Below, piece after piece: positions 20,638 to 46,939 of a DNA stretch of 64,000 nucleotides (the first letter of the stretch is position 1; each line of letters opens with the position of its first letter). The position numbers and the translations under genes are program-made. The DNA is from Acidimicrobiia bacterium (GTDB lineage: Bacteria; Actinomycetota; Acidimicrobiia; Spongiisociales; UBA11373): positions 2,874 to 66,873 of the forward strand of contig JAJCYA010000077.1 of the NCBI GenBank assembly GCA_029263095.1. The letters are read 5' to 3'. Below the pieces are notes generated by a model. That model was not told the DNA's origin and ran no database searches. It saw nothing but the letters and a program-made list of their open reading frames with translations.

Positions 20638-21708
20638 CTAGAGCACCTGTGAAATCATCTCGATGGCACGAGCGTTGTCATCTTCGGTTCCAACCGTCAC
20701 TCTGATCCACGGCCCCATCGGGCGCATCATCACACCGGATTGGAGCAATTCTGCGGCCAGCAGCGCCGGGTCCTCGGAGGGTTCCCACAGGACGAAGTTG
20801 GTTTGGCTGTCGATCACGCTCTGATCGAGTTGGCGCAGCTGCTGTGCCAGGAACGTTCGTCCGGCGGCGTTGGATTCGACCCGGCGCGCCACCAGATCCT
20901 GATGCTTTAGGGCTTCGATTGCTGCAACCTGAGCAAGGGTTCCGGTTGCATATGGCGCCTGCGGCCGTCGCAGCGCCCGAATGGTCGCCGGATCACCGAT
21001 CGCATACCCGACCCTCATCCCAGCGAGTCCATACACCTTTGAGAACGTTCGGCTCACAATGACGTTGTCGTGGTCGTTGGTCAGCGGGATTGCGCTGGAG
21101 TAGTCGGCGGCATCCACGTACTCGGCGTACGCCTCGTCGAAGACGATCGTGACCGAGTCGGGTACCAACTCGACCAGCCTGCGAATATCGGCCTCGCTGG
21201 AGTGGGTCCCGGTCGGGTTGTTGGGGTTGCAGTAGTACACCACGGCCGTGTCGGGGCGCACCGCGGCGGCCATGCCCTCCGGGTCGAGCCTCCATGCACC
21301 GTCGAGCGGTATCGCCAGCGGTTCGGCACCTGCAAGCAATGAGGCCATCCGGTAGACGACAAATGACGGGTTGCCGAATACGACGGAGGTTCCCGGACCG
21401 GATGTGGAGAGTGCGATCGAGGTCAGAATCGAAGTGCTGCCCGGACCCACCCAGAACCGATCCGGGGCGATGTCGTACAGATCGGCCAGCGATTCGACCA
21501 GATAGTCGGCGTTGCTGAGCGGATAGCGATTGATCGTCGCCAGGGCCGCTGCGACGGCCGCCTGAACCTCGGGGAAGGGCGGGGAGGGACACTCGTTGGC
21601 GGCGAGTTCGATGATCCGGTCCAGCCCGAGATCGGATGCCAGTTCGGCGGTGGGGCGCCCCGGATCGTATGCCGGGATGTCCTCCAAATCTGGTCGGTAT
21701 CTGGGCAG
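20638..21708 (-). CDS. hisC: Histidinol-phosphate aminotransferase family (class II aminotransferase)
   Basis: YYCNPNNPTGT and SRTFSKVYGLAGMRVGY motifs. Start uncertain: a perfect SD AAGGAGG precedes a CTG at 21708, a TTG at 21687 is an alternative, and the ATG-containing upstream part of the ORF is Arg-rich and overlaps the tetR promoter. Not in a his-operon context. Confidence 0.7.
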   Translation of the reverse strand: MPRYRPDLEDIPAYDPGRPTAELASDLGLDRIIELAANECPSPPFPEVQAAVAAALATINRYPLSNADYLVESLADLYDIAPDRFWVGPGSTSILTSIALSTSGPGTSVVFGNPSFVVYRMASLLAGAEPLAIPLDGAWRLDPEGMAAAVRPDTAVVYYCNPNNPTGTHSSEADIRRLVELVPDSVTIVFDEAYAEYVDAADYSSAIPLTNDHDNVIVSRTFSKVYGLAGMRVGYAIGDPATIRALRRPQAPYATGTLAQVAAIEALKHQDLVARRVESNAAGRTFLAQQLRQLDQSVIDSQTNFVLWEPSEDPALLAAELLQSGVMMRPMGPWIRVTVGTEDDNARAIEMISQVL

Positions 21709-21807
21709 CGGAACCCTCCTTGTTGCTCCTCGGCGACCGCGGTGGCCGGGCCGGGGGAGGGGAGAGAGTCTACCAATCCACCCGCGACGGCCATCGGCCG
21801 GACCCTC

Positions 21808-21862
21808 TTGACACCTTGAATGTGGTGACATAGAGTTCTACCGACCGACTGACCGGTCGGTC
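21808..21862. promoter_or_regulatory. Consensus-like promoter (TTGACA-17nt-TAGAGT) plus a 7-bp inverted repeat (GACCGAC-n6-GTCGGTC), candidate TetR operator upstream of the tetR-bcr operon
   Basis: Seen directly at 21808-21836 and 21843-21862, about 20 nt before the SD/GTG of tetR. Confidence 0.45.
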
Positions 21863-21882
21863 ACAGTGAGCACGGAGGAAAC

Positions 21883-22542
21883 GTGACCGGGAACAGGACC
21901 GGGGACGAGGCCAAGGGTGGAGACGGGTTCGGCAACAGGTCCGAGACCAGGGCAGAGGCAACGGCGGCTCGGATTGTCGGCGCTGCCCGCGGTCTGTTTC
22001 TTGCCAAGAGCTACGCCGAGGTGACGACCGACCTCATCGCACGAGCCGCTGATGTGACCAAGGGTGGCTTGTATCACCACTTTCCGAGCAAGGAATCGTT
22101 GTACCTCTCGATGATGCTGGAGGAGCTGGACCGCAAGCGGCTCCTCTTCGAGAAGGCCGTCGCCATGGCGGGCGACTCCCGTGAACGGCTGGCCCGGCTG
22201 ACCAGAGACTTCCTCGACCTCCCGACCGACGAGCGCGAGTTGATGCGCCTCGTGCGGCGTGACATCAACATCTTCGATGGCGTCGAGCGCGACCAGTTGG
22301 TGCGCGCCTATCAGCGGGCCCTTCCCGAGCAGGTCGAAGCGATCCTGCGCGACGGGATCCGAGATGGCGAGCTGAGCGTCGCCGACCCCCGACTGCTCTC
22401 CTGGTCGTTTGTGGCATTGGTCGAGATCGTGATCGGGGACTACGCGCATCGGGCCCTGGGTGATACCGGAGCTCGTCTCGATCATGTGTTGGAGCTGTTC
22501 TTCGGCGGAGCCGCCGCCCGCAGGGTCGGGGCGGCTGTATGA
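21883..22542 (+). CDS. TetR-family transcriptional regulator, first gene of the bcr-like operon
   Basis: ARGLFLAKSYAEVTTDLIARAADVTKGGLYHHFPSKESL HTH. Its stop overlaps the next gene's start (ATGA). Confidence 0.7.
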   Translation: MTGNRTGDEAKGGDGFGNRSETRAEATAARIVGAARGLFLAKSYAEVTTDLIARAADVTKGGLYHHFPSKESLYLSMMLEELDRKRLLFEKAVAMAGDSRERLARLTRDFLDLPTDERELMRLVRRDINIFDGVERDQLVRAYQRALPEQVEAILRDGIRDGELSVADPRLLSWSFVALVEIVIGDYAHRALGDTGARLDHVLELFFGGAAARRVGAAV

Positions 22543-23714
22543 CAACGATGACGACTCGGGTGTTTCCGGAGTGGCGCGACAAGTCCCTCGACGACTCCTT
22601 GCTGGAGTGCCGCGACCTGGTGGAGTCGGCAGAGTTCGAGACGGTTGCTAGATGGCGCGAGGGTGGGGGTTTGGTCGCCGGCCATTTTCAGGTGTACTTC
22701 CCCGAGGAGATTGTGGAGGCCGCAGGGATGCTCGCCTTCAAGATGCGGGGAGCACCGCTCGAACCCGATCAAGCGGACTCTCATTTCGGCTCCTACCTGT
22801 GCTCGATCCTCAAGACGTCTCTAGAGCTGTCGCTGAGCGGGACGGCCGAGTTGGACGTGTTCTTCTCGCACCCGATTTGCGATGCCGCCCGCAACCTGGC
22901 GGCGATCTGGGGCCGCAACTTCGACTACCCGAGCCAGATTGTGTACCTACCGCAGAACCCCAACTCATCGGGGAGCGTCGAGTACCTGCGTCACGAGTAC
23001 GACCGGGTGCGTCGGGTGGTGGAGGAGGTGTCGGGTCGTGAGATCACCGACGACGATCTGCGCAGATCGATCGAGGTGTTCAACGAGAATCGCCGGCTTC
23101 TTCGTGAGCTGTACGACATCAAGTCGGAGACCCCTTGGCTGATCACCGCCGAGGATGCATACGCGCTGGTGGCGCTGGCCGGGATGATGCCGCGCCGAGA
23201 GCACAACGAGCTGCTGGCGACACTGCTCCCACAGATCAGGGAGCGCACCGCCAAGAAGGAGGACCGAATTCGGTTGGTGTTCGAGGGGGGCTTCTGCGAG
23301 CAGCCGCCGTTCGACCTGATCCGGATGCTGGGTCGGACCAGCTACGTCGTCGACGATGACTTCCTGATCGGGTTGCGTTGGATCACATCGGACGTGCCCA
23401 CCGAAGGAGACCCACTCACCAACCTGGCCGAGGCGTATATCGAGCAGTCGAGCTACAGCCCGGTGCAGCACGATCTGCGCAAGCCGAAGGAGAAGATGCT
23501 GCTGGAGCGGATTCGAGAGTCGGGGGCCGAGGCCGCCGTTCTCGCCGCCGCCAAGATGTGCGAGCCGGGGCTCGAAGAGCAGGTGGCCTACACCCACGCG
23601 CTCGACGAGGCTGGCATTTCCTACTTCGTGTCGGAATTCGAGGAGAACATGAGCTCGTTCGACCAGCTGGAGATGCAGCTCGAGACCTTTGTAGAGAACC
23701 TGCTCTTTGCATGA
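22539..23714 (+). CDS. bcrC: Benzoyl-CoA reductase subunit C / BzdN / HgdB-like (2-hydroxyacyl-CoA dehydratase family, PF06050)
   Basis: 391-aa HGD-D family member, first of a C-B-ATPase-ATPase cluster in the same order as bcrCBAD. Assignment to BCR rather than dehydratase rests on context. Confidence 0.65.
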   Translation: MTTMTTRVFPEWRDKSLDDSLLECRDLVESAEFETVARWREGGGLVAGHFQVYFPEEIVEAAGMLAFKMRGAPLEPDQADSHFGSYLCSILKTSLELSLSGTAELDVFFSHPICDAARNLAAIWGRNFDYPSQIVYLPQNPNSSGSVEYLRHEYDRVRRVVEEVSGREITDDDLRRSIEVFNENRRLLRELYDIKSETPWLITAEDAYALVALAGMMPRREHNELLATLLPQIRERTAKKEDRIRLVFEGGFCEQPPFDLIRMLGRTSYVVDDDFLIGLRWITSDVPTEGDPLTNLAEAYIEQSSYSPVQHDLRKPKEKMLLERIRESGAEAAVLAAAKMCEPGLEEQVAYTHALDEAGISYFVSEFEENMSSFDQLEMQLETFVENLLFA

Positions 23715-25021
23715 TGGAGGAAGGCATGAACAGTGAGGCTGCGGTGGATCTGGTGGGCAGGGGCAACCGGGAGGGTGCCGCGCTGTTTCGCGACTGGTTC
23801 GACGAGCTGAACACGACTGCCACCAGCGGTGGGCAGGCCGCCTACGTGTTCGTCATGGGGAGCATCAACGAGATCCTGAAGTCGTTCGATCTGCCGGTCG
23901 TGTTCCCTGAGATCAACTCTTTGCAGACTGCGGTGCGGCGCGTCGCCCACGAGTACCTGGAGGAAGCCGAGGACTACGGCTATTCGCCCGATATCTGCGG
24001 CTACGTCAAGGCCGACGTCGCCACCCAGTTACGCGGTGGCGAACACCCGATGGGTCAGATTCCACCCCCGACGCTCTCGGTGCTCACCAATGCCTGCAAC
24101 ACCTACATCAAGTGGGCCGAGATCTGGGAGCGGATGTACGACTGCCCCACATTTACTCTCGACGTGCCGGGTACTCGCCAGTCGGGTCGGCAGACCTGGC
24201 GGGGCGACTCCGATTTCGAGGCAGATCGCAAGTACGTCGAGGTACAGCTGCGTGAGCTGATCACCGTCTGCGAGGCGGTGACTGGCCGCAAGTTCGACAT
24301 CGACAAGTTTCGCGAAGTCCTCACCCACGCCAACACGATGAGCCGATCCTGGAATCGGATACTCGAACTCAATCAGTCCAAGCCGGCCCTGTTCAGTGCT
24401 CTCACCGACGGCACGATCTTCCTTGGGGTAGCCAACGGGTTCAGGGGAACGGAGGCCGGTGCTCGCTACTTCGAGCGGCTGGTCGAGGAGATGGAGTACA
24501 AGGCAGCCAACGGGATAGGGACCACCATCGAGGAGGAGTACCGCCTCCTGTTCGTGGGAGTGCCCTGCTACCCGATCTTTCGCCGGTTCAATGAGCTGTT
24601 TACCGACTGGGGAGGCACGTTCGTCAACTCCACCTACCTGTGGTTCGCCTCGGGCGGGACCAACCGCGGTTTCGAGTACGACCTCAAAGACCCGATTGCC
24701 AGCCTGGCCGAGGGGGTATTGGTGAGCGTGCGGGATGCCATGGACGCCATGTTCCATCAGGACGTCGTGCTGGCAGACATGGTCGACGACTTTGGGGCGG
24801 ACGGGGTGATCTACCACCCGATCAAGAGCTGTCGGACCGTCTCCACCGGGCTGGCAGACGGGCGCCGCTATCTGACCAAGGAGCGCGACATCCCCACCCT
24901 GTTCATCGAGTCGGACATGATGGATCGCAGGGTGGTCTCGGAAGCACAGATGAAGAACCGCATCGACGCCTTCTTCGAAGGCTTGGCGTCGCGTCGCCAG
25001 ATGGCTGGAACGAAAGGATGA
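23711..25021 (+). CDS. bcrB: Benzoyl-CoA reductase subunit B / BzdO / HgdA-like (PF06050)
   Basis: 437 aa after trimming the 111 Arg-rich leading codons. Start [10 protein letters not shown] overlaps the upstream stop (ATGA). Confidence 0.65.
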
Positions 25022-25031
25022 GGTGCCACCC

Positions 25032-25853
25032 ATGGCTTATGCAGCCGGAGTAGATGTCGGCTCCACCCAGACGAAGGCCGTGATCATCGGCGAGGACCGC
25101 CGTATCGCGGGGCGTTCACTGCTGGACACGGGGGCCAACGTCATAAAGGCGGCGGAATCCGCCTATATGGCCGCGCTCGAACAAGGGGGGATCGAGGAGA
25201 GAGAGGTCGAGTACGTCGTCGGGACCGGATACGGACGATATCGGGTCACCTTCGGAAACACCCAGGTCACCGAGATCAGCTGCCACGGCCGGGGAGCAGT
25301 CCATCTGTTTCCCAACACCAGGACCGTTGTCGACATGGGGGGACAGGACACCAAGGCGATCAGCGTCAGTCCCCAGGGTGAGATCACCGACTTCTGTATG
25401 AATGACAAGTGTGCCGCCGGAACCGGCCGCTTTCTAGGAGCCGCAGCAGCGGCTCTCGACATTCCCCTCGACGATCTGGGATCGATCTCGCTGAAGTCGG
25501 ACAGACCCATCAAGATCAGCACCACTTGTACGGTCTTCGCCGAATCCGAGGTGCTCGCCTGGATCGGCAAGGGCAAGAAGATCGAGGACATCCTGTCTGG
25601 GGTGCACAAGTCGATTGCCTCCAGATCGGCCGCTCTGATGCGGAGGGTGGGGATCGACGATGAAGTGACCTTTACCGGCGGCGTTTCGCGCAACGAAGGC
25701 ATGGTGAAGGCACTCGAGGACAGGCTCGGTACTCGACTCAACATCAGCGACGATTGCCACTACATGGGGGCACTCGGCGCCGCCCTGTTTGCACTCGATC
25801 ACGTTGTTGCCGGCCGGGCTCCGGCCGCCGAGGGAGCGGGGGTCTCGGCGTGA
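25032..25853 (+). CDS. BadF/BadG/BcrA/BcrD/HgdC-type ATPase (activase) subunit
   Basis: [12 protein letters not shown] (actin-fold phosphate-1) and [11 protein letters not shown] (cluster-binding Cys motif). Confidence 0.75.
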
Positions 25854-26662
25854 TGGTCACAGCAGGGCTCGATGTCGGATCGACGTATACGAAGGTCGTG
25901 ATCCAGGCCGGTGACGGTTCGATCCTCGGCAATGCTGCGGCTCCCACGGGTTTTCGACTGCGGGAGCAGGCCAGGGACACCTACGACAGGGCACTCGCCG
26001 AGGCAGGAATCTCCGAATCCGATGTCGACTACGTGGTGGCCACCGGGATCGGTCGTCACCAGGTCGACTTCAAGGATCTCCACGTGACCGACCTCACCGC
26101 CAGCGCCAGGGGAGCGCACTTCCTGTTCCCGGAGACCCGGACCATTCTCGATATCGGCGGTCAGACGATGAAGGCCAGCCGGATCGACGGTGTTGCCAAG
26201 GTTCTCTCATTCCGCCTCAACGACAAGTGTGCCGCCGGGACCGGCGCCTTCCTGGAGAAGACCGCTCGCTACATGGGGTACACGACCAGCGAGATCGGTC
26301 CGCTGATGTCGACTTCGAAGGATCCGGTGCCGATATCGGGGGTTTGTGCGGTGTTTGCCGAGTCCGAGGTGATCAACCACCTATCTCTGGGGACTGCACC
26401 CGCCGACATCATGCAGGGTGCGATCGAATCGCTGACCAATCGGGCGGTTCAACTGATGAAGCGCGTCAGGGCCGAACCCGAACACACGCTTGTCGGGGGC
26501 ATCCTCAGGTTCGAGACCATGGGTCGCTCCGTGAGTGAGACTCTGGGGGCAGATGTCAATGTCCCTGATCCCGAAATGGTTCAGTTCGTCTCGGCCCTGG
26601 GGTGCGCCATCCTCGCCCGACTCCGGTTGGAGAAGCTGGCGGCGACGGGAGCAGCGGTGTGA
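25853..26662 (+). CDS. Second BadF/BadG/BcrA/BcrD/HgdC-type ATPase subunit
   Basis: AGLDVGSTYTKV and [11 protein letters not shown] motifs. TGATG overlap with the upstream gene. Two ATPase genes is the BCR signature; dehydratases have one. Confidence 0.75.
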   Translation: MVTAGLDVGSTYTKVVIQAGDGSILGNAAAPTGFRLREQARDTYDRALAEAGISESDVDYVVATGIGRHQVDFKDLHVTDLTASARGAHFLFPETRTILDIGGQTMKASRIDGVAKVLSFRLNDKCAAGTGAFLEKTARYMGYTTSEIGPLMSTSKDPVPISGVCAVFAESEVINHLSLGTAPADIMQGAIESLTNRAVQLMKRVRAEPEHTLVGGILRFETMGRSVSETLGADVNVPDPEMVQFVSALGCAILARLRLEKLAATGAAV

Positions 26663-26910
26663 GCACGCCGGTCCGTATCACCGGATTGACTATCGGCGAT
26701 GCCCCCGAGCTGGCTGCGGGCGGTTGGGTCCGGCGCGCCGTGACCGATGCCCAACGAGCCGAGGAGCAGGGACAGCTCTATTCGGAGATCGGCTTCGAAG
26801 TGATGCTGCGTCCCCTCGATGACTCGAGTTACGCCGAAGACTGCACCGGTTGCGCCGCGGGGCCGACTTCGGTCATTGTCTACACCCGTAGGCCCCAAGC
26901 CGCCTCCTAA
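26659..26910 (+). CDS. Hypothetical small protein with a single CxxC, translationally coupled to the ATPase gene
   Basis: GTG start overlaps the upstream TGA (GTGA). Not a canonical 2x[4Fe-4S] ferredoxin. Confidence 0.3.
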   Translation: MSTPVRITGLTIGDAPELAAGGWVRRAVTDAQRAEEQGQLYSEIGFEVMLRPLDDSSYAEDCTGCAAGPTSVIVYTRRPQAAS

Positions 26911-26936
26911 TCGCTCCTCTCTCGGGAGGGGATTCT

Positions 26937-27120
26937 GATCACTCTCCCCTTTGGGTGTCGGGTTGCGCGACAGGGCCGAAGATCGTTGGCTTCTTCTGGA
27001 CTACTCCCCCTCGGAGGGGGAGACAGCGAGCGAAGCGAGCTGGTGGGGGGGAAAGCTCAAGAACCCCCCATCCCCCTCGTCGCTGCGCTCCTCACGGACT
27101 TCCCCCACAAGGGGGGAAAG
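26937..27120. repeat. Third, rearranged copy of the 12.1-kb repeat family
   Basis: Shares the 5' end tgatcactctcccctttggg, then carries the reverse complement of the unit's 3' half (ctactccccctcggagggggag..gctggtgggggggaaagct). Flanked by gattct on both sides; between convergent genes. Confidence 0.65.
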
Positions 27121-27139
27121 ATTCTCCTTCTTGTGCCCG

Positions 27140-27844
27140 CTACAGGTATTGGCCGCCGTCTACTCGGATCACCTGGCCCGTGATGTGGCGGGCGGCATCG
27201 GACACCAAGAAGGCGATCACGTCGGCGACGTCTTCGGGCTCACCGAGGCGCCCCAGACTGCTGTCTTTGCGAGCCGCCTCTTGGATCTCATCGGGTAATG
27301 ACACCGTCATTGGGGTGCGGATCATGCCGGGGGCGACGACGTTTACCCGAATCCCAAAGTGGCCGAGCTCTCGGGCCAGCGATTTGGCCAACCCGTGGAG
27401 ACCGGCCTTGGAGGCGGCATAGTTGGCCTGGCCGAACTTGCCACGTTCTCCGTTGATCGAAGACACGAAGACGATGGCGCCGCCGCCTGCTTGCCGCATC
27501 AGGGGTGTCGCCGCTCGGCTGAGATAGAAGCCCGAATCGAGGTTGACGGCCAGCACAGATTTCCAGTCGGAGTCGTCCATCTTCCACGACACACCATCTC
27601 TGGTGATACCGGCAGCATGGACCAGGACGTCCAGGCCTCCAAACGCCTCGGCGGCGGCACTCACCGCATCGGCGCATGCAGCGGGGTCGGCCAGGTCGCA
27701 AGCGAACATCTCGTCGGCACCGGGTGGTGGGTCGTTTGTCTGAATGTCGGCGACGGCCACTAGGTGGTCCGTCTGTGCCAACGCCGCCACCGTTGCGCGG
27801 CCGATTCCTCCGCTCCCGCCACTGACCAGTGCTCTGACACTCAT
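27140..27844 (-). CDS. SDR-family oxidoreductase (3-oxoacyl/3-hydroxyacyl reductase-like)
   Basis: SGGSGGIGRA glycine motif, the NYAASKAG catalytic YxxxK, and the C-terminal ITGQVIRVDGG. Confidence 0.7.
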   Translation of the reverse strand: MSVRALVSGGSGGIGRATVAALAQTDHLVAVADIQTNDPPPGADEMFACDLADPAACADAVSAAAEAFGGLDVLVHAAGITRDGVSWKMDDSDWKSVLAVNLDSGFYLSRAATPLMRQAGGGAIVFVSSINGERGKFGQANYAASKAGLHGLAKSLARELGHFGIRVNVVAPGMIRTPMTVSLPDEIQEAARKDSSLGRLGEPEDVADVIAFLVSDAARHITGQVIRVDGGQYL

Positions 27845-28599
27845 GCATTTCTCCACTCTGGGTTGCGCTTGTCGAGAAACGCTTGGATTCCCTCGACTCC
27901 GTCGTGGAGCTCGAGAAGCTCCTCGAGGTAGATGCGCTCGGCATTGCTGAGGCGGTCCTCGATTGCCTTGCGCTGTGGCTCCCGTACCGCTCGGGTGGCC
28001 AAGCGCAGCGAAGCGGCCGAGCGAGGTGCGAAGTGCTCGGCTATGAACCCGTCCACCGTCTCATCGAGGCTGTTCGATGGGGCGAGCGCGTTGACGATCC
28101 CGAGTCTGAAGGCCTCGGTTGCGGTCAAGTCTCGACCGGTGAGGAGCACGTCCTCGGCGGCGCGTCCTGTCAAGAGGGCGGTCGCCGCCGGGGCGAGCAC
28201 CCCGAGGCGAATCTCGGGCGAGGCGAGCACGGCGTCTTCCTCGGCAATGACGATGCCGCACGCTAGGGCCAATTCCAGCCCTCCGCCCAAGCACCGGCCC
28301 TGGACCCCGGCCAGCGTCGGGTATGGGAAGCCGACCAGGTCGCGTACCACGCCGCCGATCGCCTCCAACATCTGCGGTGCTTGCTCGGGCAGGTGCTCCT
28401 CGACGCTGGCGCCGAACGAGAAGTGCTTCCCGGCCCCCCGCAGCACCAGCACCTTGCCGCGCTCATCGGCTGCTGCTGTCGCGATGGCGGGTCGTAGCTC
28501 GGCACATAGAGCCAGGTCGATCACATTGCCGGGCGGTGAGTCCATCGTGATCGTCTGGACACCGCCGTCGGGTGACGCAGTGTGGAGCACGATGGCCAT
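27841..28599 (-). CDS. dch: Enoyl-CoA hydratase (crotonase fold), candidate cyclohexa-1,5-diene-1-carbonyl-CoA hydratase (Dch)
   Basis: Crotonase motifs (GAGKHFSFGASV, GGGLELALACG) in a ~28-kDa protein placed between oah and an SDR. Dch identity is contextual. Confidence 0.6.
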   Translation of the reverse strand: MAIVLHTASPDGGVQTITMDSPPGNVIDLALCAELRPAIATAAADERGKVLVLRGAGKHFSFGASVEEHLPEQAPQMLEAIGGVVRDLVGFPYPTLAGVQGRCLGGGLELALACGIVIAEEDAVLASPEIRLGVLAPAATALLTGRAAEDVLLTGRDLTATEAFRLGIVNALAPSNSLDETVDGFIAEHFAPRSAASLRLATRAVREPQRKAIEDRLSNAERIYLEELLELHDGVEGIQAFLDKRNPEWRNA

Positions 28600-29696
28600 C
28601 AGGATTGCGGGGAAATGGCGGCGGTCAGATCATCGCCCCAAGTCTCGCCACCGGCGAGGCGGAGGCGGAGATCGACGAAGTCGACCTCGCGGCCAACCTC
28701 CCTGTCGCCGCGGTGAAACGCCTGGAAGCCGGCCTTGGCTTCGGTCATCATGTTCAACGAGAGCCAAGCTCGGTTGGTCTCCTTGTTCTGATCCCAATGC
28801 TCCAGCTTCTTCTTTCGCATCGACTCGACGGTCTTGATGGTGCAGTCGGGCATGGTGTAGAGGATCTTGGTGACAAGCGCCTCGACTCCGGCGTCGAGTA
28901 GAGAGAAGTCGGTCTCGCCGGCCTTCAGCATTGCCTTGCCGTCGGCGAGGTCATCACCTTCCTTCATCTTCCCGTGGACGATCCGACCCCAATCGTCGAG
29001 GTAGCGATCCGTGATCACCAATGGGTTGGGGACGAACTCCCCATCCACTTTGAGTACAGGGAAGATGTCATTGACCAGGCCCAGACGGAGTGCCTCGTGG
29101 GCGCTCCACGCCTCGCACAGCACACAGGAGGCCATGGCCTCGCCGAAGCCGACGTATAGGTGCAGAAAGTCGGTGGAGCCACCATCGGGCGCCGAGCCGT
29201 GCTTGGGTCCTGCCTGGCCGAAGCGGGCCAGATCGCTGGCGACGGTGAAGTCACACGCCATCCCGATCTCCTGGCCGCCGCCGATCCGCATGCCGTTGAC
29301 TCGGTTGATCACCGGCTTGTCGCAGGCAAGGATCGTCGAGACCATGTCGTTGAAGAGCCGCATGTATTGGCGGTACTCACCAGGTCGGCCGGCGTAGTAC
29401 TCGGAGTACTCCTCGGTGTTGCCCCCGGTGCAGAAGGAGCGATCTCCGGCGCCCGTAAAGACGACTGCCACCGCGGCCCGATCTACCGAGGCGCGCCGGA
29501 AGGCGAGGATCGTGTCCTTGACGGTTTCGGTCGTATAGGAGTTGAGCTGCTCGGGGTTGTCGAGCGTAATCCACACCGAATGCAGACCGTCCACCGGTTG
29601 TCCGGAGGAGTCGAGGACCGGCTTCTCCTCGTAACGGACCTCGGTGAGTTCCCGGTCGGGTACCAGATCGTGGTTCTTGAACTCCATGGGCTCCAT
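28599..29696 (-). CDS. bamA: 6-oxocyclohex-1-ene-1-carbonyl-CoA hydrolase (ring-cleaving crotonase; BamA/Oah)
   Basis: 366 aa after trimming 110 Arg-rich leading codons; SD AAAGGA upstream. Contains LNSYTT and QEIGM, the peptide motifs targeted by the bamA primers SP9/ASP1, with 19/22 and 17/18 nt identity to the primer sequences. Confidence 0.8.
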   Translation of the reverse strand: MEPMEFKNHDLVPDRELTEVRYEEKPVLDSSGQPVDGLHSVWITLDNPEQLNSYTTETVKDTILAFRRASVDRAAVAVVFTGAGDRSFCTGGNTEEYSEYYAGRPGEYRQYMRLFNDMVSTILACDKPVINRVNGMRIGGGQEIGMACDFTVASDLARFGQAGPKHGSAPDGGSTDFLHLYVGFGEAMASCVLCEAWSAHEALRLGLVNDIFPVLKVDGEFVPNPLVITDRYLDDWGRIVHGKMKEGDDLADGKAMLKAGETDFSLLDAGVEALVTKILYTMPDCTIKTVESMRKKKLEHWDQNKETNRAWLSLNMMTEAKAGFQAFHRGDREVGREVDFVDLRLRLAGGETWGDDLTAAISPQS

Positions 29697-29701
29697 TCCT
29701 T

Positions 29702-30760
29702 TCACGGTATGAGAATCGAACGGCGGGGGTCGGATCCGGAACGAGCAGCTGCCAGCGCCGCTTCGGCCTCCGCCATCGGGACCTTGCGGGTAAACGGGAG
29801 AAGATCGATGCGCCCTGCGGTGACCAGTTCCACAGCCTCTGGATAACGCTCCGGCGGACAGCCCCATGAGCCGAAGGCGGCGGCGTCGAAGGCCATGAGG
29901 TTGGAGAGGCGAATCGAAACCTTGTCCATGGTGAATCCGACCACCGCCAGCGTGCCGGCGGGACCCAGCATCCCGAAGGCCGTCTCCTGGCCGGGGGCGG
30001 TGCCGGAGCACTCGAATATCTTCCACCCGGTCGATGGGGCGTTGAGGTCACGGGCCTGCTCCCGAGCGGCGTCACGCACCTGGCGTGGTGATAGGCCGTC
30101 GGCATTGACGGTGGTGGATGCACCGTGGTCGAGTAGTGGGGTCAAACGGGCTTCGTCGACATCGACTGCGATCACGGTGGCTCCCGAGGCTGCTGCGATC
30201 TGGACCGCGTAGGTGCCGACACCTCCGGTGCCTATCACGACGGCCAGGTCACCTTCGGCGACACCGGCACGTCGTATCGCCTGGAGCGGCGTTGTGACGG
30301 CGTCGGCGACCACTGCGAAATCGGCCAGTTCGTACCCGTTGGGGAGGGAATCGATCGCGGCCAAACCCACCGCCGGCACGGTGACGTGGGTGGCGAATCC
30401 GCCGTCGAGATCGTTCCCCGGCATCTTCTGCCGTTTACATACGTTGCCGCGGCCCGACGTACACAGGCCGCACTCGCCGCACGGGATGACGGCGGGCACC
30501 AGCACATCTTTGCCCAACCAAGCCTCGGCGCCGGTTCCGGTCGCGATGATCGTTCCGACGATCTCATGTCCCAGTACCAGAGGGAGGGACGCCCTGGTGG
30601 CGACGTGACCGTCGGCAAAGCCGAGGTCGGTGTGGCATACCCCACATCCGGCGATTTCGATCAGCACCTCGCCAGCCTCGGGGTCCCTCCCGGCGTCTTC
30701 CACCCGTTCCAGGGTCTTGCCCGGCTCCACCAGGCGCCAGGAGTAGCGGTCGGCGCTCAT
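29702..30760 (-). CDS. had: Zinc-dependent alcohol dehydrogenase family, candidate 6-hydroxycyclohex-1-ene-1-carbonyl-CoA dehydrogenase (Had)
   Basis: GCGVCHTDL, GHEIVG, CGECGLCTSGRGNVC and GTGGVGTYAVQIA motifs. Lies directly upstream of bamA; SD GGAGAGGAG. Confidence 0.65.
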   Translation of the reverse strand: MSADRYSWRLVEPGKTLERVEDAGRDPEAGEVLIEIAGCGVCHTDLGFADGHVATRASLPLVLGHEIVGTIIATGTGAEAWLGKDVLVPAVIPCGECGLCTSGRGNVCKRQKMPGNDLDGGFATHVTVPAVGLAAIDSLPNGYELADFAVVADAVTTPLQAIRRAGVAEGDLAVVIGTGGVGTYAVQIAAASGATVIAVDVDEARLTPLLDHGASTTVNADGLSPRQVRDAAREQARDLNAPSTGWKIFECSGTAPGQETAFGMLGPAGTLAVVGFTMDKVSIRLSNLMAFDAAAFGSWGCPPERYPEAVELVTAGRIDLLPFTRKVPMAEAEAALAAARSGSDPRRSILIP

Positions 30761-30864: not shown

Positions 30865-31416
30865 ATGAGCGACACCGCAACCGGAATCTTGCGAGCGGAA
30901 CACCGGCTCATCCTGGAAGTGGCTTCGGTGCTGGAGAGGGCTCTGGACACCGGGGAGGGTGATCACGACACGCTGGGCGACTGCATTGCTTTCTTTCGCC
31001 TCTTTGCCGACGCCTGCCATCACGGGAAGGAGGAGGACCTTCTGTTTCCCGCTCTGGAGGACGAGGGAATGCCCACCGACGCCGGGCCGATCGCCGTCAT
31101 GCTTCATGAGCACCGCATCGGGCGTGAGTTCATCCGCCGCATGGCCGACGCATTGCCCCGCTCCGGTGAGGGTGACTCCACCGCCGCCACCGAGGTCGCC
31201 GATGCCGGTCGGGGCTACATCGAGCTGATCAGGGCGCACATAGCCAAAGAGGACGGGGTTCTTTTCGAAATGGCCGACGGGATGGTCACCGGCCCCGCCT
31301 GCAGGGACTTGTGCTCGGCGTACGACGAGGGTTGTGCCCGCCGCTTCGAGGGCAAGACGCTGCAGGATCTGGAGGATTTGGCCGAGTCGCTGCGAGGTCG
31401 CTACCCCGCAGTCTGA
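30865..31416 (+). CDS. Hemerythrin HHE cation-binding domain protein
   Basis: H..E/H...H spacing (ILRAEHRLI, CHHGKEEDLLFP, MLHEHRIGREF, RAHIAKED). Confidence 0.6.
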   Translation: MSDTATGILRAEHRLILEVASVLERALDTGEGDHDTLGDCIAFFRLFADACHHGKEEDLLFPALEDEGMPTDAGPIAVMLHEHRIGREFIRRMADALPRSGEGDSTAATEVADAGRGYIELIRAHIAKEDGVLFEMADGMVTGPACRDLCSAYDEGCARRFEGKTLQDLEDLAESLRGRYPAV

Positions 31417-33168: not shown

Positions 33169-33182
33169 GCCCCTCCCTCCGT

Positions 33183-33929: not shown

Positions 33930-33957
33930 GATTGCTACCTCCCTAGGTCCGACACCA

Positions 33958-34758: not shown

Positions 34759-34766
34759 TTCTGCTC

Positions 34767-37833: not shown

Positions 37834-38015
37834 GGCGTCCTCCTTCGATCATTCCGTATCGGACCGACGCAGGACGACTCTGGTGGTACCCGTGCTGCGG
37901 GCGGCTTCTCCATGACGCCCGACCCCTCGATACTTCAGCGGCCGGGTGGCACGGCGAGTAGTCTACCGAACGGTCGGACGGCGCGTAGCTGGAGGCAACT
38001 GATGGAGGTTCGACG

Positions 38016-39583: not shown

Positions 39584-40722
39584 GCGGCGAGCAGGTTGCG
39601 CTGCCCTTCACGCTGATGCGGGGAGGAACATCGAAGGCGGTGTTTCTGCGCGGTGCCGACCTGCCTCCATCAGGTGCTCTACGCGACCGTATGATCTTGG
39701 CGTTGTTCGGCAGTCCCGATCCCCGGCAGATAGATGGTCTGGGAGGCGCGGACATCCTCACCAGCAAGCTGGCCATCATCGATCCCCCCTCTCGACCCGA
39801 TGTGGACCTGAACTACACCTTTGCGCAGGTGAGTGTCTCGGAACCGGTAGTGGATTACGACATCATCTGCGGAAACATCTCGGCCGCCGTCGGTGCCTAC
39901 GCAGTGGATGAGGGCTTGGTGTCGCCCGAAGAATCCGAGGCGACGGTGCGGATCTACAACACGAACACGGATCGCGTCTTCCGGGCGATGGTTCCGGTGC
40001 AGCGTGGCCGGGCCGCCATCGACGGTGACTGCGTGATCGATGGTGTCCCCGGTAGCGGGGCACCCATTGCCCTGGACCTCAGCGGCACGTACGGCAGCGA
40101 AACCGGAGCACTGCTCCCGACGGGCAATCCACTCGACGTGCTGGAAACCGGGATCGGATCCGTGGAGGTGTCGATCGTGGATCTCGCCAGCCTGTGTGTC
40201 TTCTTTCACGCTTCGGCGGTGGGGCTCGACGGAACTGAAGGACCGGATGCGGTGAGCGGTGATCATGTGGCTGCCGTAGTCGCCGTGAAGGAGGCGACTT
40301 CCAAGCTCCTCGGCCTGGCTCCCGATGCATTGACTCCAATACCGGCGGCGGTTGCGGCGCCGACCGACTACGTCGGCTTCGGGAACGGCGACCCCGTCGC
40401 CACAGCCGACGTCGATCTGGTGGCGCGAGTCATCGGGGGAAGGCCCCCGATGCTGCACAAGGCGTATCCCGGCGCTTCGGCAGCCTGCACAGCCGTGGCT
40501 GCTCGCATTCCCGGCACTGTTGTGGCTCAAGTCGTTCAGCAGCTCGAGCCCGGCACGCTGCGTATCGGCCACACCAGTGGCGTCATGAGCGTTGGCGTTG
40601 CCGTCGCACCCGATGGAGACACCTGGCAGGTGCAGCGCGCCTCCTACGACCGGACGGCTCGACGTTTGGCCGAGGGCACAGCGTTTGTTCGCCGGGCCGA
40701 AGCCGGCGCGGACGGCCGATGA
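39580..40722 (+). CDS. PrpF/AcnD-accessory (DUF453) family isomerase
   Basis: MRGGTSKAVF N-terminal signature of the PrpF/Mii/GalD family. GTG start overlaps the thiolase stop. Confidence 0.65.
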   Translation: MSGEQVALPFTLMRGGTSKAVFLRGADLPPSGALRDRMILALFGSPDPRQIDGLGGADILTSKLAIIDPPSRPDVDLNYTFAQVSVSEPVVDYDIICGNISAAVGAYAVDEGLVSPEESEATVRIYNTNTDRVFRAMVPVQRGRAAIDGDCVIDGVPGSGAPIALDLSGTYGSETGALLPTGNPLDVLETGIGSVEVSIVDLASLCVFFHASAVGLDGTEGPDAVSGDHVAAVVAVKEATSKLLGLAPDALTPIPAAVAAPTDYVGFGNGDPVATADVDLVARVIGGRPPMLHKAYPGASAACTAVAARIPGTVVAQVVQQLEPGTLRIGHTSGVMSVGVAVAPDGDTWQVQRASYDRTARRLAEGTAFVRRAEAGADGR

Positions 40723-41189
40723 CCGACGGCATCCTCACCCTCACGGTGAACGGCGAAGCCCGTCGTCTTGTCGCTGAGGGGCAGCGCACTCTTCTCGAGT
40801 TGCTGCGCGACGATCTGGGTCTGACGGGGACCAAGCACGGGTGCGACCTGGGTGAGTGCGGCACCTGCACCGTTCTGGTCGACGGTAAGCCGGTGCTCTC
40901 CTGCCTGACTCTGGCGACGCAGACGCGGGGGAGCGAAGTGACCACCGTCGAGGGGTTGGCCGATGGATTGGTTCCCCATCCGTTGCAGAAGGCATTCGCC
41001 GAACTGGGGGCGGCCCAGTGCGGGTACTGCACGCCGGGGATGCTGGTCACGGCGGCGGCGTTGCTCGAGCGCAATCCGCAACCCGACACCGACGAGATCA
41101 GGCAAGCCCTGGCCGGGAATCTCTGTCGCTGCACCGGGTACATCAAGATCCTCGATGCAGTGAAACTCGCCGCGGGTGCGGTCCGGTGA
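40719..41189 (+). CDS. hcrC: [2Fe-2S]-binding small subunit of the xanthine dehydrogenase/CO dehydrogenase family, HcrC-like
   Basis: CDLGECGTCTV (plant-type cluster) and CGYCTPGM...CRCTGY (second cluster). Confidence 0.75.
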   Translation: MTDGILTLTVNGEARRLVAEGQRTLLELLRDDLGLTGTKHGCDLGECGTCTVLVDGKPVLSCLTLATQTRGSEVTTVEGLADGLVPHPLQKAFAELGAAQCGYCTPGMLVTAAALLERNPQPDTDEIRQALAGNLCRCTGYIKILDAVKLAAGAVR

Positions 41190-43546
41190 CGGGCAACGTA
41201 GTGGTCGGTCGTCCGGGTCCGCGAGTCGATGCCGCCGATCAGGTAACCGGCCGGACCACCTTCGCAGGCGACATCGATCGTTCAGGGATGCTGATCGGCG
41301 GCCTCCTCGAGTCGTCGCAGGCGCACGCCCGGATTCTCAGCGTCGATACTTCGGCTGCCGAGGCACTTCCAGGTGTCCGTGCTGTACTCACAGGAGCGGA
41401 TCTTCCGGTTCCTTACGGGATCCTTCCCGTAAGCCAAGACGAGCACGCGCTCGCGGTGGACAAGGTTCGATATGTGGGGGAGCCGGTGGCGGCCGTTGCT
41501 GCCGTGGATGCCGATTCGGTGGAAGAGGCCTTGTCTCGGATCGTGGTCGAATACGAGCCGCTCGACGCGGTTGCGACCATCGAAGAGGCCCTGGCTTCGG
41601 GAACCCGAATCCACGGCGAAGGCGAAGGCGACAACGTGCACCGCCGCGCTGCCCTCGAGTTTGGAGACGTCGGTTCGGGTTTCGATGCCGCCCATCTGGT
41701 GCGAGAGGATGTCTACTTCTTCGGCGGCAACACTCACGCCGCACTGGAACAGCACGCGGCGGTGGCGTCCGCCGGACTCGACGGGCGGGTGACGCTGTGG
41801 TCTTCCACGCAGGTGCCGCATTATCTGCATCGCACTCTCGAGAAGGTGCTCGAAATGCCCGCCGGTCGGATCCGGGTGATCGCCGCCCCCGTCGGCGGTG
41901 GATTCGGCGGCAAGACCGATCCCTTCAGTCATGAGATCGTTGCCGCCAAGCTGGCGATGGTCACCGGACGCCCGGTCAAGATCGTTCTGTCGCGCCAGCA
42001 GGTCTTCTACGCCCACAGGGGCAGGCATCCGGTGCTGATGTGGGTCAAGACCGGATTCGATCCTGAGGGCCGGATCACAGCCATGCACTTCAAGTCATTC
42101 CTCGACGGGGGTGCCTACGGCTCCTATGGGGCCGCCTCCCTCCTCTACACCGGGTCGCTCCAAACCTCCACTTACCGGATCCCCAACTACAAGTTCGAAG
42201 GCGTGCGGGTGTTCACCAACAAGCCACCTTGTGGGCCCAAGCGGGGGCACGGAACTCCCCAGCCCCGGTTTGCACTCGAATGCCAGCTGGACGAGGCGGC
42301 GGCCGATCTGGGTCTCGATCCGGTGACCATTCGGCGCCGCAATCTGGTGGAACCCTTCTCGATGACGGTCAATCACCTTCGGATCACCAGCTGCGGCATC
42401 GAGGAGTGCCTGGATCGTGCCGTTGAAGCCTCCGACTTCTCCGCCAAGCACGGCAACCTCCCGGAGGGCAAGGGGATCGGCCTCGCTGCCGGCGCCTACC
42501 TGTCTGGAGCCGGTCTCCCCATCTACTGGAACGATATGCCGCAGTCCGAGGTGGAGATCAAGGTGGATCGAGGTGGGGGGGTCACGGTGTTCTCGATGGC
42601 TACCGACGTGGGCCAGGGCTCGACGTCGGTGCTGGCGACGATCGTCGCCGAAGTACTGGGCCTCGAACCGAGCGACCTAGCGATGGTCACTGCCGATACC
42701 GATCTGACACCGGTGGACCTCGGGTCATATTCGAGTCGGGTCACCTTTATGGCGGGAAACGCCGCCAAGGAAGCCGCGGAAGGGATCCGAGACCGGGTGA
42801 TTGCGGCTGTAGCCGACGAATTGGGGCTTTCAGCAGACGTCGTGGTGGTGGCGGGAGGAAGGGTCGGCTCAGCGAACGACGAAGACAAGACTCTCTCGTG
42901 GGCCGACGCGGTCCGGGCTGCCATCGTCCGGGGCGGGTCCCTGACGGGCTCAGGCTCCTACCGGGCGCCAGATCTCGCCGGTCCGTATCGGGGATCCGGA
43001 GTTGGTATTTCACCCGCATACTCGTACTCGGTGGCGGTGGTAGAGGTCGACTGCGATTCTGAGACCGGTGAGGTGCGAGTGGCAAAGGTGTGGCTGGCCC
43101 ACGACATCGGCCGGGCACTAAACCCCCTCCTGGTCGAGGGCCAGATGGAAGGCGGGGTCTACATGGGGCTGGGGGAGGCACTATTCGAGGAGCAGGCGTT
43201 CCGGCACACCCTCCACCGGGGCCCGTCACTGCTCGACTACAAGCTGCCGACCTTTCTCGAGATGCCACCGGTGCAGTCGATTCTGGTCGAAACCGACGAT
43301 CCTGAGGGGCCGTTTGGTGCCAAGGAGGTCGGTCAGGGTCCACTGCTGCCGGTCATACCGGCACTGGCCAATGCGGTCCACGACGCCCTGGGTGTTCGCG
43401 TCGCTGAGGTGCCGATCACCCCCGACAAGGTGGTCGCCGCCCAGCGAGACATCAAACGGGGAGGGGATGGCCGCTTTGGGCCCCGATCCGTGCCCGACTA
43501 CGACTTCGGGCGACTCACCCGAGTCGATCCCCCTGGGGAGTTCTAG
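41186..43546 (+). CDS. hcrA: Molybdopterin-cofactor large subunit (XDH/CODH family), HcrA-like 4-hydroxybenzoyl-CoA reductase alpha
   Basis: 787 aa from a GTG overlapping the hcrC stop. Typical MoCo-subunit motifs (GGGFGGK, etc.). Confidence 0.7.
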   Translation: MTGNVVVGRPGPRVDAADQVTGRTTFAGDIDRSGMLIGGLLESSQAHARILSVDTSAAEALPGVRAVLTGADLPVPYGILPVSQDEHALAVDKVRYVGEPVAAVAAVDADSVEEALSRIVVEYEPLDAVATIEEALASGTRIHGEGEGDNVHRRAALEFGDVGSGFDAAHLVREDVYFFGGNTHAALEQHAAVASAGLDGRVTLWSSTQVPHYLHRTLEKVLEMPAGRIRVIAAPVGGGFGGKTDPFSHEIVAAKLAMVTGRPVKIVLSRQQVFYAHRGRHPVLMWVKTGFDPEGRITAMHFKSFLDGGAYGSYGAASLLYTGSLQTSTYRIPNYKFEGVRVFTNKPPCGPKRGHGTPQPRFALECQLDEAAADLGLDPVTIRRRNLVEPFSMTVNHLRITSCGIEECLDRAVEASDFSAKHGNLPEGKGIGLAAGAYLSGAGLPIYWNDMPQSEVEIKVDRGGGVTVFSMATDVGQGSTSVLATIVAEVLGLEPSDLAMVTADTDLTPVDLGSYSSRVTFMAGNAAKEAAEGIRDRVIAAVADELGLSADVVVVAGGRVGSANDEDKTLSWADAVRAAIVRGGSLTGSGSYRAPDLAGPYRGSGVGISPAYSYSVAVVEVDCDSETGEVRVAKVWLAHDIGRALNPLLVEGQMEGGVYMGLGEALFEEQAFRHTLHRGPSLLDYKLPTFLEMPPVQSILVETDDPEGPFGAKEVGQGPLLPVIPALANAVHDALGVRVAEVPITPDKVVAAQRDIKRGGDGRFGPRSVPDYDFGRLTRVDPPGEF

Positions 43547-44511
43547 TGCGCCTCCCGGCCTTCGGCTACTTGGAACCCTCCACCGTTGAGGACGCGGTCG
43601 AGTTGCTGGCGATCAATCCGGGGGCCGAGATCATTGCCGGGGGGACCGACCTGATCCCGAACATGAAGCGTCGCCAGATCAGTCCGTCGACGGTGATAGC
43701 GCTAGGCACGATCGATGGGATGAGCGGGATCCAAGTCGATGACGATGGTGGCGTGACGATCGGGGCGCTGACCCTGCTGCACGACTTGGCTGCTTCGTCG
43801 GAGGTTCCGGCCGCACTTGCATCGGCTGCTGCCGAGATCGGGTCGCCTCAGATACGGAACGTGGCAACGGTCGGTGGCAATCTCTGTCTGGACACGCGGT
43901 GCGGCTTCATCAATCAGACAGAGTCGTGGCGTCTGGCATCGGGTCTTTGCCTCAAGGCGGATGGCGACGTGTGCTGGGTGGCTCCCAAGGGAGAAGAGTG
44001 CGTTGCAGTCTCATCCTCCGATCTGGCACCGGTTACGGTCGCTCTCGATGCCGAGGTGGGCCTAGTCGGACCAGATGGATCACGCACCCTGGCCGCCTCC
44101 GATCTGTATCGCTCCGACGGTATCGATCACCTCGGGAAGTCGGCGGATGAGATTGTCACAGCTCTCACGGTGCCGCCTCGCCCGCGGTGGCGGACGGGCT
44201 ACCGCAAACTGCGCCGCAGGGGGACGATCGACTTCCCGATTCTCGGCGTCGCCGTGGCCGTCGAGGTGGCGGACGACGGCAGGGTCAAGGATGCGCGAAT
44301 CGTTCTCGGTGCGATAGCGCCTGCACCTATGCGAATGCGTCAGGCCGAGGAGGCCCTGGTGGGGAGCCGACTCGACGCCGAGGCGATAGAGCGCGCTGCC
44401 GAACTGGCTGCCAAGCCGGTACGCCCCTACGACAACGTGGACCTGGGGTCTCGCTACCGCAAGTGGATGGCACCGGTGTTCATCACAAGGGCGTTGCAGG
44501 ACCTCCGGTAG
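43546..44511 (+). CDS. hcrB: FAD-binding medium subunit with a Cys-rich insertion (HcrB-like)
   Basis: CoxM-like FAD domain plus the inserted NLCLDTRCGFINQTESWRLASGLCLKADGDVCWVAPKGEEC (5 Cys in 42 aa), consistent with the extra [4Fe-4S] loop characteristic of 4-hydroxybenzoyl-CoA reductase beta subunits. Confidence 0.7.
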   Translation: MRLPAFGYLEPSTVEDAVELLAINPGAEIIAGGTDLIPNMKRRQISPSTVIALGTIDGMSGIQVDDDGGVTIGALTLLHDLAASSEVPAALASAAAEIGSPQIRNVATVGGNLCLDTRCGFINQTESWRLASGLCLKADGDVCWVAPKGEECVAVSSSDLAPVTVALDAEVGLVGPDGSRTLAASDLYRSDGIDHLGKSADEIVTALTVPPRPRWRTGYRKLRRRGTIDFPILGVAVAVEVADDGRVKDARIVLGAIAPAPMRMRQAEEALVGSRLDAEAIERAAELAAKPVRPYDNVDLGSRYRKWMAPVFITRALQDLR

Positions 44512-46840: not shown

Positions 46841-46939
46841 CTGGTGAGCGTACGCATCATCTGGGATCACCACAGCTGTTGCGACCGAACGGCTCCGCGG
46901 CGTGAGATAACGCGGGGTCTTGGTACCGTCGGACGCGAC

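Follow-up and report, generated by a model that had tools for sequence, protein, structure and literature searches.

Analysis of a 64,000-nt stretch of DNA from an uncultured member of the Acidimicrobiia (hereafter the window) reveals six same-strand genes at positions 21808-26910. These most probably form a repressor-controlled operon for a class I, ATP-dependent, dearomatising aryl-CoA reductase of the MBR type, with the gene order tetR-N-O-Q-P followed by a small open reading frame (ORF) of 83 aa. The operon appears to be chromosomal and to lie within a larger region for anaerobic aromatic catabolism; judged from sequence comparisons, we would put the probability of this reading at roughly 85%. 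A first-pass annotation of the same DNA had already called a class I benzoyl-CoA reductase at this site. Its observation is confirmed and its core interpretation is better supported than the annotation itself had it. Promoter, palindrome, tetR, the four enzyme genes and the small ORF were all found where it had placed them:

21808..21836, + strand: sigma-70-type promoter TTGACA-17-TAGAGT (motif scan and conservation in relatives)
21840..21861, strand not applicable: predicted 22-nt palindromic operator ACCGACCGACTGACCGGTCGGT (palindrome over the predicted transcription start)
21883..22542, + strand: TetR-family gene, first gene of the operon (Pfam TetR_N and TetR_C_24)
22539..23714, + strand: N, predicted reductase gamma subunit, MbdN/BcrC-like, 391 aa (PDB 9g87_B match; Pfam HGD-D)
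23726..25021 (alternative start 23711), + strand: O, predicted reductase beta active-site subunit, MbdO/BcrB-like, 431 aa (PDB 9g87_A match; HGD-D)
25032..25853 (alternative GTG start 25023), + strand: Q, predicted ATPase alpha subunit, MbdQ/BcrA-like, 273 aa (PDB 9gai_D match; BcrAD_BadFG)
25853..26662, + strand: P, predicted ATPase delta subunit, MbdP/BcrD-like, 269 aa (PDB 9gai_C match; BcrAD_BadFG)
26659..26910, + strand: conserved 83-aa CxxC protein, fifth operon gene after tetR (recurs 3' of the second ATPase gene in relatives)

Identity and type of the reductase

The subunits were compared with solved structures (PDB), using the 3-methylbenzoyl-CoA reductase of Thauera chlorobenzoica as reference. 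Each of the four proteins finds its own counterpart: N matches MbdN (gamma, 9g87_B) at 515 bits and 58% identity, O matches MbdO (beta, 9g87_A) at 551 bits and 55%, Q matches MbdQ (alpha, 9gai_D) at 413 bits and 69%, and P matches MbdP (delta, 9gai_C) at 298 bits and 55%. The two ATPases are clearly different from each other, since the first scores 413 bits against MbdQ and 171 against MbdP, and the second 298 bits against MbdP and 183 against MbdQ. Rival structures score lower: 116-126 bits for HadB/HadC, 141-223 bits for the dehydratase activators HadI/HgdC, 92-98 bits for BzdN/BzdO and 45 bits for the double-cubane protein (DCCP entries at most 139). The one-to-one matches (298-551 bits against 116-223 bits for HadBC/HadI) bear out the class I call. 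Pfam agrees at the level of the families, with two HGD-D (PF06050) and two BcrAD_BadFG (PF01869) matches among the operon proteins.

The cysteines expected to bind clusters, whose conservation the first-pass annotation had singled out as a check, are retained in beta, gamma and both ATPases. Each ATPase keeps a Cys pair (Cys127 and Cys166 in Q, Cys126 and Cys165 in P), which from prior knowledge of HgdC we take to be the ligands of a bridging cluster. The gamma subunit has five Cys in total, all common to MbdN. In the beta subunit Cys91, Cys124 and Cys369 align with the MbdO cysteines and with BzdO Cys95/128/380, the ligands of the active-site [4Fe-4S] cluster (PMC11971306). A different picture is seen at the position aligned with the proposed acid/base residue BzdO His131, which is Tyr here (residue 132 in the 436-aa reading) and Phe in MbdO. 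It follows that protons must be delivered in another way in MBR-type enzymes.

Class I reductases are divided into BCR, MBR and BZD types, of which BCR and MBR form permanent heterotetramers (Fuchs et al., PMC11971306). The MBR type has been characterised both biochemically and structurally in Thauera (PDB 9G87/9GAI; PMC11971306). Assignment to the BZD type was rejected on the NCBIfam scores (TIGR03190 96 bits against a cut-off of 454, TIGR03191 96 against 449, TIGR03192 184 against 380). It is also ruled out by the Cys count of the N subunit: BzdN binds an [8Fe-9S] double cubane through six Cys (PMC11971306), and five are too few for such a cluster. The BzdNOPQ enzyme of Aromatoleum sp. CIB (PDB 8S02) does belong to the same superfamily, and its three-Cys active-site [4Fe-4S] motif is kept in the window beta subunit. 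Identity to BzdNO, however, is approximately 26% (92-98 bits), and BzdO His131 has become Tyr.

For the beta subunit an exhaustive search of 1.84 billion cluster representatives supplied 166 proteins (E <= 1e-30) as input for a tree. Two of these, P0395 and P0400, are canonical BcrB proteins with 815 and 630 bits on TIGR02260; another six are HadB-like. Window beta and T. chlorobenzoica MbdO fall into one clade in 71/100 bootstraps, a count that is conservative for a simple neighbour-joining tree built with a fast distance method. The canonical BcrB representatives are approximately 33% identical to window beta. Dehydratase-like sequences branch outside the clade, and so the phylogeny that the first-pass annotation had proposed as a check comes out in favour of its call.

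Much the same evidence bears on whether the operon encodes a 2-hydroxyacyl-CoA dehydratase with a duplicated activator, active in amino-acid fermentation rather than in ring reduction. NCBI indeed labels the relatives '2-hydroxyacyl-CoA dehydratase family protein', HGD-D is common to both, and the HadB and HadC models match at 137 and 166 bits. These scores are far from the cut-offs of 750 and 700, and the dehydratase was rejected on this ground together with the presence of two distinct ATPase genes. HadBC with HadI, and HgdAB with HgdC, share the combination of HGD-D and a BcrAD-type activator and the ATP-driven injection of electrons, but they have a single homodimeric activator gene, whose product is used catalytically, and differ in genomic context; identity is approximately 26-30%. 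Specifically, the catalytic subunits are approximately 26% identical to 2-hydroxyisocaproyl-CoA dehydratase (HadBC) against 55-58% to MbdO/MbdN, and the ATPase genes map one to MbdQ and the other to MbdP, so that the two-ATPase argument of the first-pass annotation stands. The branching of beta outside the dehydratase-like sequences and the neighbouring dch, had, oah and hcr genes point the same way, and we regard a dehydratase as highly improbable.

Ring-opening neighbours and the proposed pathway

The reductase of the MBR type that we favour would need enzymes for its product, and candidates are encoded directly next to it. The genes had, oah, dch-like and that of a short-chain dehydrogenase/reductase (SDR) run convergent to the reductase operon, and hcr-like genes follow 14 kb downstream of it:

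27140..27856, - strand: SDR, FabG-like, candidate 3-hydroxypimelyl-CoA dehydrogenase, last gene of the convergent operon (function from position only)
27841..28599, - strand: dch-like, cyclohexa-1,5-diene-1-carbonyl-CoA hydratase-like enoyl-CoA hydratase (TIGR03189 best match, 213 bits against a cut-off of 292)
28599..29690, - strand: oah/bamA, predicted 6-oxocyclohex-1-ene-1-carbonyl-CoA hydrolase (TIGR03200 556 bits, over the cut-off of 464)
29702..30760, - strand: had, predicted 6-hydroxycyclohex-1-ene-1-carbonyl-CoA dehydrogenase (TIGR03201 435 bits, over the cut-off of 339)
30865..31416, + strand: hemerythrin HHE-domain protein, possibly associated (Pfam PF01814)
40719..44511, + strand: hcrC-like 40719-41189, hcrA-like 41186-43546 and hcrB-like 43546-44511 (TIGR03193/03194/03195 best matches)

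By their best matches dch, oah and had would cover the three steps after ring reduction, and the SDR is a plausible 3-hydroxypimelyl-CoA dehydrogenase. A search for relatives in species-representative genomes, a single one for each species, gave at least 583 loci, and all locus counts below refer to the best 80 of these (L001-L080). In 22-24 of the 80, genes for dch, oah and had are found no more than 10 kb from those of the reductase.

The hcr-like genes resemble those for HcrCAB, the three-subunit 4-hydroxybenzoyl-CoA reductase of Thauera aromatica (PDB 1RM6). Their alpha subunit reaches 629 bits against 1RM6, with the next entry at 302 bits. The FAD (beta) subunit aligns gap-free through the Cys-rich loop of 1RM6_B, the insertion for the extra [4Fe-4S] cluster, and all five Cys are conserved. 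In contrast to HcrCAB itself, the window genes score under the NCBIfam cut-offs (190 against 258 bits for TIGR03193, 863 against 995 for TIGR03194, 277 against 405 for TIGR03195) and lie 14 kb away from the reductase operon. We thus describe them as 4-hydroxybenzoyl-CoA reductase-like, with the extra [4Fe-4S] loop of the FAD subunit kept. The neighbourhood as a whole is predicted to encode the conversion of 4-hydroxybenzoyl-CoA via benzoyl-CoA and dienoyl-CoA to 3-hydroxypimelyl-CoA. The adjacent dch-oah-had and hcrCAB-like genes, which the first-pass annotation had missed, are the best functional evidence for the predicted reductase.

By analogy with characterised homologues, the Q/P ATPase heterodimer would hold a bridging [4Fe-4S] cluster and accept single electrons from a reduced low-potential donor encoded elsewhere. 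Hydrolysis of ATP would then power electron transfer to the [4Fe-4S] clusters in N and O, and O would convert benzoyl-CoA to cyclohexa-1,5-diene-1-carbonyl-CoA. This diene would be hydrated by Dch and oxidised by Had, after which Oah would open the ring to yield 3-hydroxypimelyl-CoA. The Hcr-like enzyme would feed in benzoyl-CoA made from 4-hydroxybenzoyl-CoA.

A number of observations weigh against this interpretation. The best NCBIfam matches of the four proteins are Thauera-type BcrC, BcrB, BcrA and BcrD, all far under the equivalog cut-offs (TIGR02263 248 against 421 bits, TIGR02260 212 against 487, TIGR02259 211 against 578, TIGR02261 150 against 313), although these models describe the Thauera BCR type and not the MBR type. 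Support for the tree, at 71/100 bootstraps from simple neighbour-joining, is moderate. The dch-like and hcr-like genes both remain under their NCBIfam equivalog cut-offs, and the 64-kb window contains no benzoate-CoA/AMP-forming ligase, ferredoxin motif or 2-oxoacid:ferredoxin oxidoreductase. The window TetR scores only 38.9 bits against MbdR (PDB 4UDS), the repressor of a known MBR-type operon, and MbdR ranks seventh among the PDB TetR proteins. Finally, the enzyme might act on a substituted benzoyl-CoA instead of benzoyl-CoA itself.

As all four equivalog cut-offs are missed, filing the enzyme under the BCR type (Thauera BcrCBAD) was rejected. The bzd-type and HadBC models score lower still than the Bcr models; the alpha ATPase also reaches 269 bits on TIGR00241. 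BcrCBAD of T. aromatica and BadDEFG of Rhodopseudomonas palustris do share with the window the family, the presumed mechanism and the gene order gamma, beta, alpha, delta. Besides the low scores, however, the match to the BcrA model is confined to its C-terminal half, and BcrB is approximately 33% identical.

The question of the substrate deserves separate attention. The reductase might act on another aryl-CoA (3-/4-methylbenzoyl-CoA, halobenzoyl-CoA or other substituted forms) and use benzoyl-CoA as a side substrate only. The nearest characterised enzyme is named for 3-methylbenzoyl-CoA, dch is under its equivalog cut-off, and the exchange of BzdO His131 for Tyr here and Phe in MbdO indicates an active-site pocket that differs by type. 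Identity to MbdO is just 55%, though, against 74-92% inside the environmental clade, so that specificity need not follow Thauera. Moreover, oah and had reach cut-offs built on the unsubstituted pathway, and the hcrCAB-like enzyme would give unsubstituted benzoyl-CoA. A substituted main substrate is therefore the less probable option, although one to be kept in mind.

Between the hemerythrin gene and the hcr-like genes lies a second catabolic cluster (31401-40722), which is syntenic in the closest related locus (L001). It contains genes for the large and small subunits of a LeuCD-like hydratase, an SDR, an enoyl-CoA hydratase, a family III CoA-transferase, a TetR protein, an HMGL/isopropylmalate-synthase-like enzyme, an SCP-x-type thiolase (BbsB-like, 316 bits) and PrpF. 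Unrelated features elsewhere in the window are a T4 gp19-like tail-tube ORF (851-2476), a HipA-family kinase gene (9159-10442) and a serpin gene (46817-48319).

Operon control, the fifth gene and the electron donor

The genes of the MBR-type operon are tightly packed. According to the first-pass annotation, overlaps of 1-4 nt join them throughout. True start/stop overlaps are indeed present at three junctions (ATGA at tetR/N, TGATG at Q/P, GTGA at P/small ORF), but N/O and O/Q overlap only with the upstream-most starts (23711 and 25023). With the preferred starts at 23726 and 25032, which are backed by a Shine-Dalgarno sequence, the alignment to MbdQ and database entry P0001, N and O are separated by 11 nt and O and Q by 10 nt. 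The order N-O-Q-P is found in all related loci long enough to show it (approximately 75/80), and tetR lies 5' of the reductase genes in 42 of the 80. Searches for RNA elements gave no additions: Rfam finds no RNA family in the window, the intergenic region 26900-27145 folds no better than shuffled sequence (z = -0.26), and a terminator scan yields nothing relevant.

Both the TTGACA-17-TAGAGT promoter and the palindromic operator 5' of tetR, as described in the first-pass annotation, were recovered. The promoter is the sole sigma-70-like site in 21500-27300 (5.8 kb), but as shuffled sequence gives 0.8 such sites the count by itself is not significant. It is credible because of its conserved position among relatives: TTGAC[AG]-N16-18-TAnnnT occurs at the same position in 32 of the 42 related loci that bear tetR. 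Most Acidimicrobiia relatives carry a 22-nt element, ACCGACCGGTCAGTCGGTCGGT, of which the operator ACCGACCGACTGACCGGTCGGT is the reverse complement. More generally, the motif ACCGAY...RTCGGT stands 5' of tetR in 28/40 loci, 13 of which have the exact 22-nt element, and over 1.2 Mb of loci it occurs just 41 times. The 22-nt element starts 3 nt past the -10 hexamer, so that the expected transcription start falls inside it, as would be the case for the binding site of a repressor; in relatives the palindrome begins approximately 31-39 nt after the start of the first promoter hexamer. The conservation of promoter and operator across phyla is new here.

The best comparison for this arrangement is MbdR of Azoarcus sp. 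CIB, a TetR-family repressor of the mbd cluster that is released by 3-methylbenzoyl-CoA (PMC4424350). Its operator, ATAC-N10-GTAT, covers the -10 and the transcription start (PMC4424350). In both cases a TetR-family protein is associated with an MBR-type reductase operon and a palindromic operator over the -10/+1 region. On the other hand, the acidimicrobial operator is longer (22 nt) and differs from ATAC-N10-GTAT. The window TetR was considered as an MbdR orthologue, but the similarity found (38.9 bits) is generic and not distinguishable from that to other TetR proteins. A short operator ATACCGACCAGTCGGTAT that does fit the MbdR pattern is present 5' of tetR in planctomycete, gammaproteobacterial and other relatives (L060, L068, L075, L077 and L080), with regulators that are themselves just generically similar. 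The window TetR is presumably autoregulated: it would repress its own operon until an aryl-CoA releases it, in the manner of MbdR and 3-methylbenzoyl-CoA. By this analogy an aryl-CoA inducer is a reasonable inference.

The small ORF at the end of the operon is real, and it is a conserved operon member of an uncharacterised family, which is new here and had escaped the first-pass annotation. A homologue lies 3' of the second ATPase gene in 45/80 loci from six or more phyla, and from Acidimicrobiia to Planctomycetota and Chloroflexota the gene is translationally coupled to that ATPase gene. Loci found from family member P0193 (L081-L083) show the same array of HGD-D, HGD-D, BcrAD, BcrAD and small gene. 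The family comprises 947 clusters, none with a Pfam domain and none with a functional name (if named, 'hypothetical protein'). For the window protein neither Pfam (E up to 1) nor a fold search gives a match. Invariant residues are G22, W23, R26, E36, Y41, G45, C62, C65, T76 and R77. Most family members have a third Cys four residues past the CxxC, which the window copy lacks. In an AlphaFold model (predicted local distance difference test score, pLDDT, 75) a helix, a strand and a second helix are followed by two strands; the loop that carries the CxxC is modelled with low confidence.

The source of electrons forms a second point of interest. The first-pass annotation had reported no ferredoxin or KorAB genes adjacent to the operon, and the whole 64-kb window is indeed free of them. 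For ferredoxin the relatives give the same result: a 2[4Fe-4S]-type ferredoxin (CxxCxxCxxxCP motif) within 10 kb of the reductase genes is found in none of the 80 loci, the sole two matches being single motifs in ORFs of 360 aa (L070) and 899 aa (L064). This lack of a linked ferredoxin at any of the 80 loci is new here. The clusters of Thauera and Azoarcus, by comparison, are linked to ferredoxin genes. A hemerythrin gene occurs within 10 kb of the reductase genes in 10/80 loci, among them the window, L045, L056, L061, L063 and L076. In a Caldilineaceae MAG (metagenome-assembled genome; L071, 13020-13862) a hemerythrin domain is fused to the small CxxC protein. The recurrent hemerythrin may indicate oxygen sensing, protection or Fe-S repair.

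Taken together, one may speculate that the 83-aa protein is an unrecognised fifth component specific to the environmental MBR clade, for instance an accessory subunit, a factor for cluster maturation or protection, or an adaptor to a donor other than ferredoxin. Combined with the recurrent hemerythrin and the lack of a linked ferredoxin, it might let largely aerobic or microaerobic lineages run an O2-sensitive enzyme. We consider this idea tentative and rather unlikely.

The same observations could be read differently, with the cluster serving mainly alicyclic acids (e.g. cyclohexanecarboxylate entering at dienoyl-CoA) and the reductase being a relic, seldom used or running in reverse, of an organism that is essentially aerobic. 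Relatives do occur in lineages usually deemed aerobic (marine Acidimicrobiia, Planctomycetota, Blastocatellia), a hemerythrin gene adjoins and no ferredoxin gene is nearby. But four intact subunits, retained cluster ligands and a very high conservation across phyla indicate purifying selection, the genes are tightly coupled in translation behind a conserved regulated promoter, and the hcr-like genes make sense only upstream of a benzoyl-CoA reductase. A relic is consequently improbable, and an active reductase of the MBR type remains our preferred interpretation.

Compared with the MbdONQP systems of Thauera chlorobenzoica 3CB-1 and Azoarcus/Aromatoleum sp. CIB (PDB 9G87, 9GAI, 9GAL, 9GBA), the window thus agrees in its four subunits one-to-one, with the same cysteines, and in its short ATPase subunits (approximately 270 aa), from which the long extension at the N terminus of BcrA is missing. 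A TetR-family regulator with an operator over the transcription start and dch, had and oah-type genes alongside are shared as well. Differences concern the host (Acidimicrobiia, of the Actinomycetota, against Betaproteobacteria) and the start of the operon, which is tetR followed by N in the window whereas the Azoarcus operon begins at mbdO with mbdR separate. In addition, the window has no nearby ferredoxin gene, carries the extra conserved 83-aa gene and belongs to a separate, highly conserved environmental clade (74-92% identity among the best 80 loci).

Host, spread and significance

The first-pass annotation had deduced an actinobacterial origin, and this is corroborated by two results. 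The best named relatives of the SufB protein of the window are all from Acidimicrobiia, Actinobacteria or Actinomycetota MAGs (87-93% identity). Furthermore, the closest locus among the species-representative genomes listed is that of Acidimicrobiia bacterium SCS3bin.8 (L001), which is syntenic from the aminotransferase gene 5' of tetR through the CoA-transferase gene 9 kb downstream at 69-93% protein identity. The annotation had also raised the possibility of horizontal acquisition. A recent acquisition as an island was rejected: GC content, GC content at third codon positions (GC3) and codon usage of the operon do not stand outside the values for housekeeping and other genes such as those of SufB, fumarase and the sigma factor. 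Older transfers, in contrast, are implied by the identity across phyla.

The extent of this identity is considerable. For the beta subunit 4067 cluster-level relatives were found (E <= 1e-10), and none of the best 120 is less than 76% identical. The best 80 loci, all from MAGs, are 74-92% identical and originate from Acidimicrobiia, Planctomycetota, Chloroflexota, Acidobacteriota, Gemmatimonadota, Zixibacteria, Ignavibacteriales and several gammaproteobacterial orders. Near-identical operons thus occur in at least eight phyla, in marine and sediment metagenomes that include Tara Oceans data. Such high identity across phyla implies that the genes spread horizontally at some stage and are under strong constraint.

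Some of the MAG labels should be treated with care. Those of L002 (Kiloniellaceae), L026 (Armatimonadetes) and L023 (Proteobacteria) clash with near-identity and synteny to Acidimicrobiia loci, most clearly for L002 (89% identity, same aminotransferase-tetR context), and mis-binning of these three is likely. A Phycisphaerales MAG contig (JASMMN010000024.1) appears to carry two N-O-Q-P-small operons (L050 and L051), inverted and 32-54 kb apart. Their percent identities to the window proteins are identical, which may reflect a duplication or an assembly artefact.

The suggestion of an undescribed lineage could not be maintained. The subtype is known from Thauera (PMC11971306) and common in MAGs of many phyla, relatives are named 'benzoyl-CoA reductase subunit B' by JGI, and bcrBC has been noted in sediment Acidimicrobiia of the order UBA5794 (PMC12008989). 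A literature search on the environmental clade found no biochemical or focused genomic study. What we describe is a new host rather than a new enzyme.

To our knowledge, class I benzoyl-CoA reductases have been studied biochemically in just a few denitrifying or phototrophic Proteobacteria. The locus leaves the understanding of the enzyme chemistry unchanged. What is still novel concerns how widely the environmental clade extends, its electron donor and the fifth gene, and the latter two provide leads for further work. Summarizing, the MBR subtype with downstream ring-opening enzymes appears chromosomally established in uncultured Acidimicrobiia. This aromatic-degrading capacity is hidden by the generic '2-hydroxyacyl-CoA dehydratase' annotation of NCBI, and estimates of the low-oxygen degraders of lignin-derived and pollutant aromatics would need to count these lineages.

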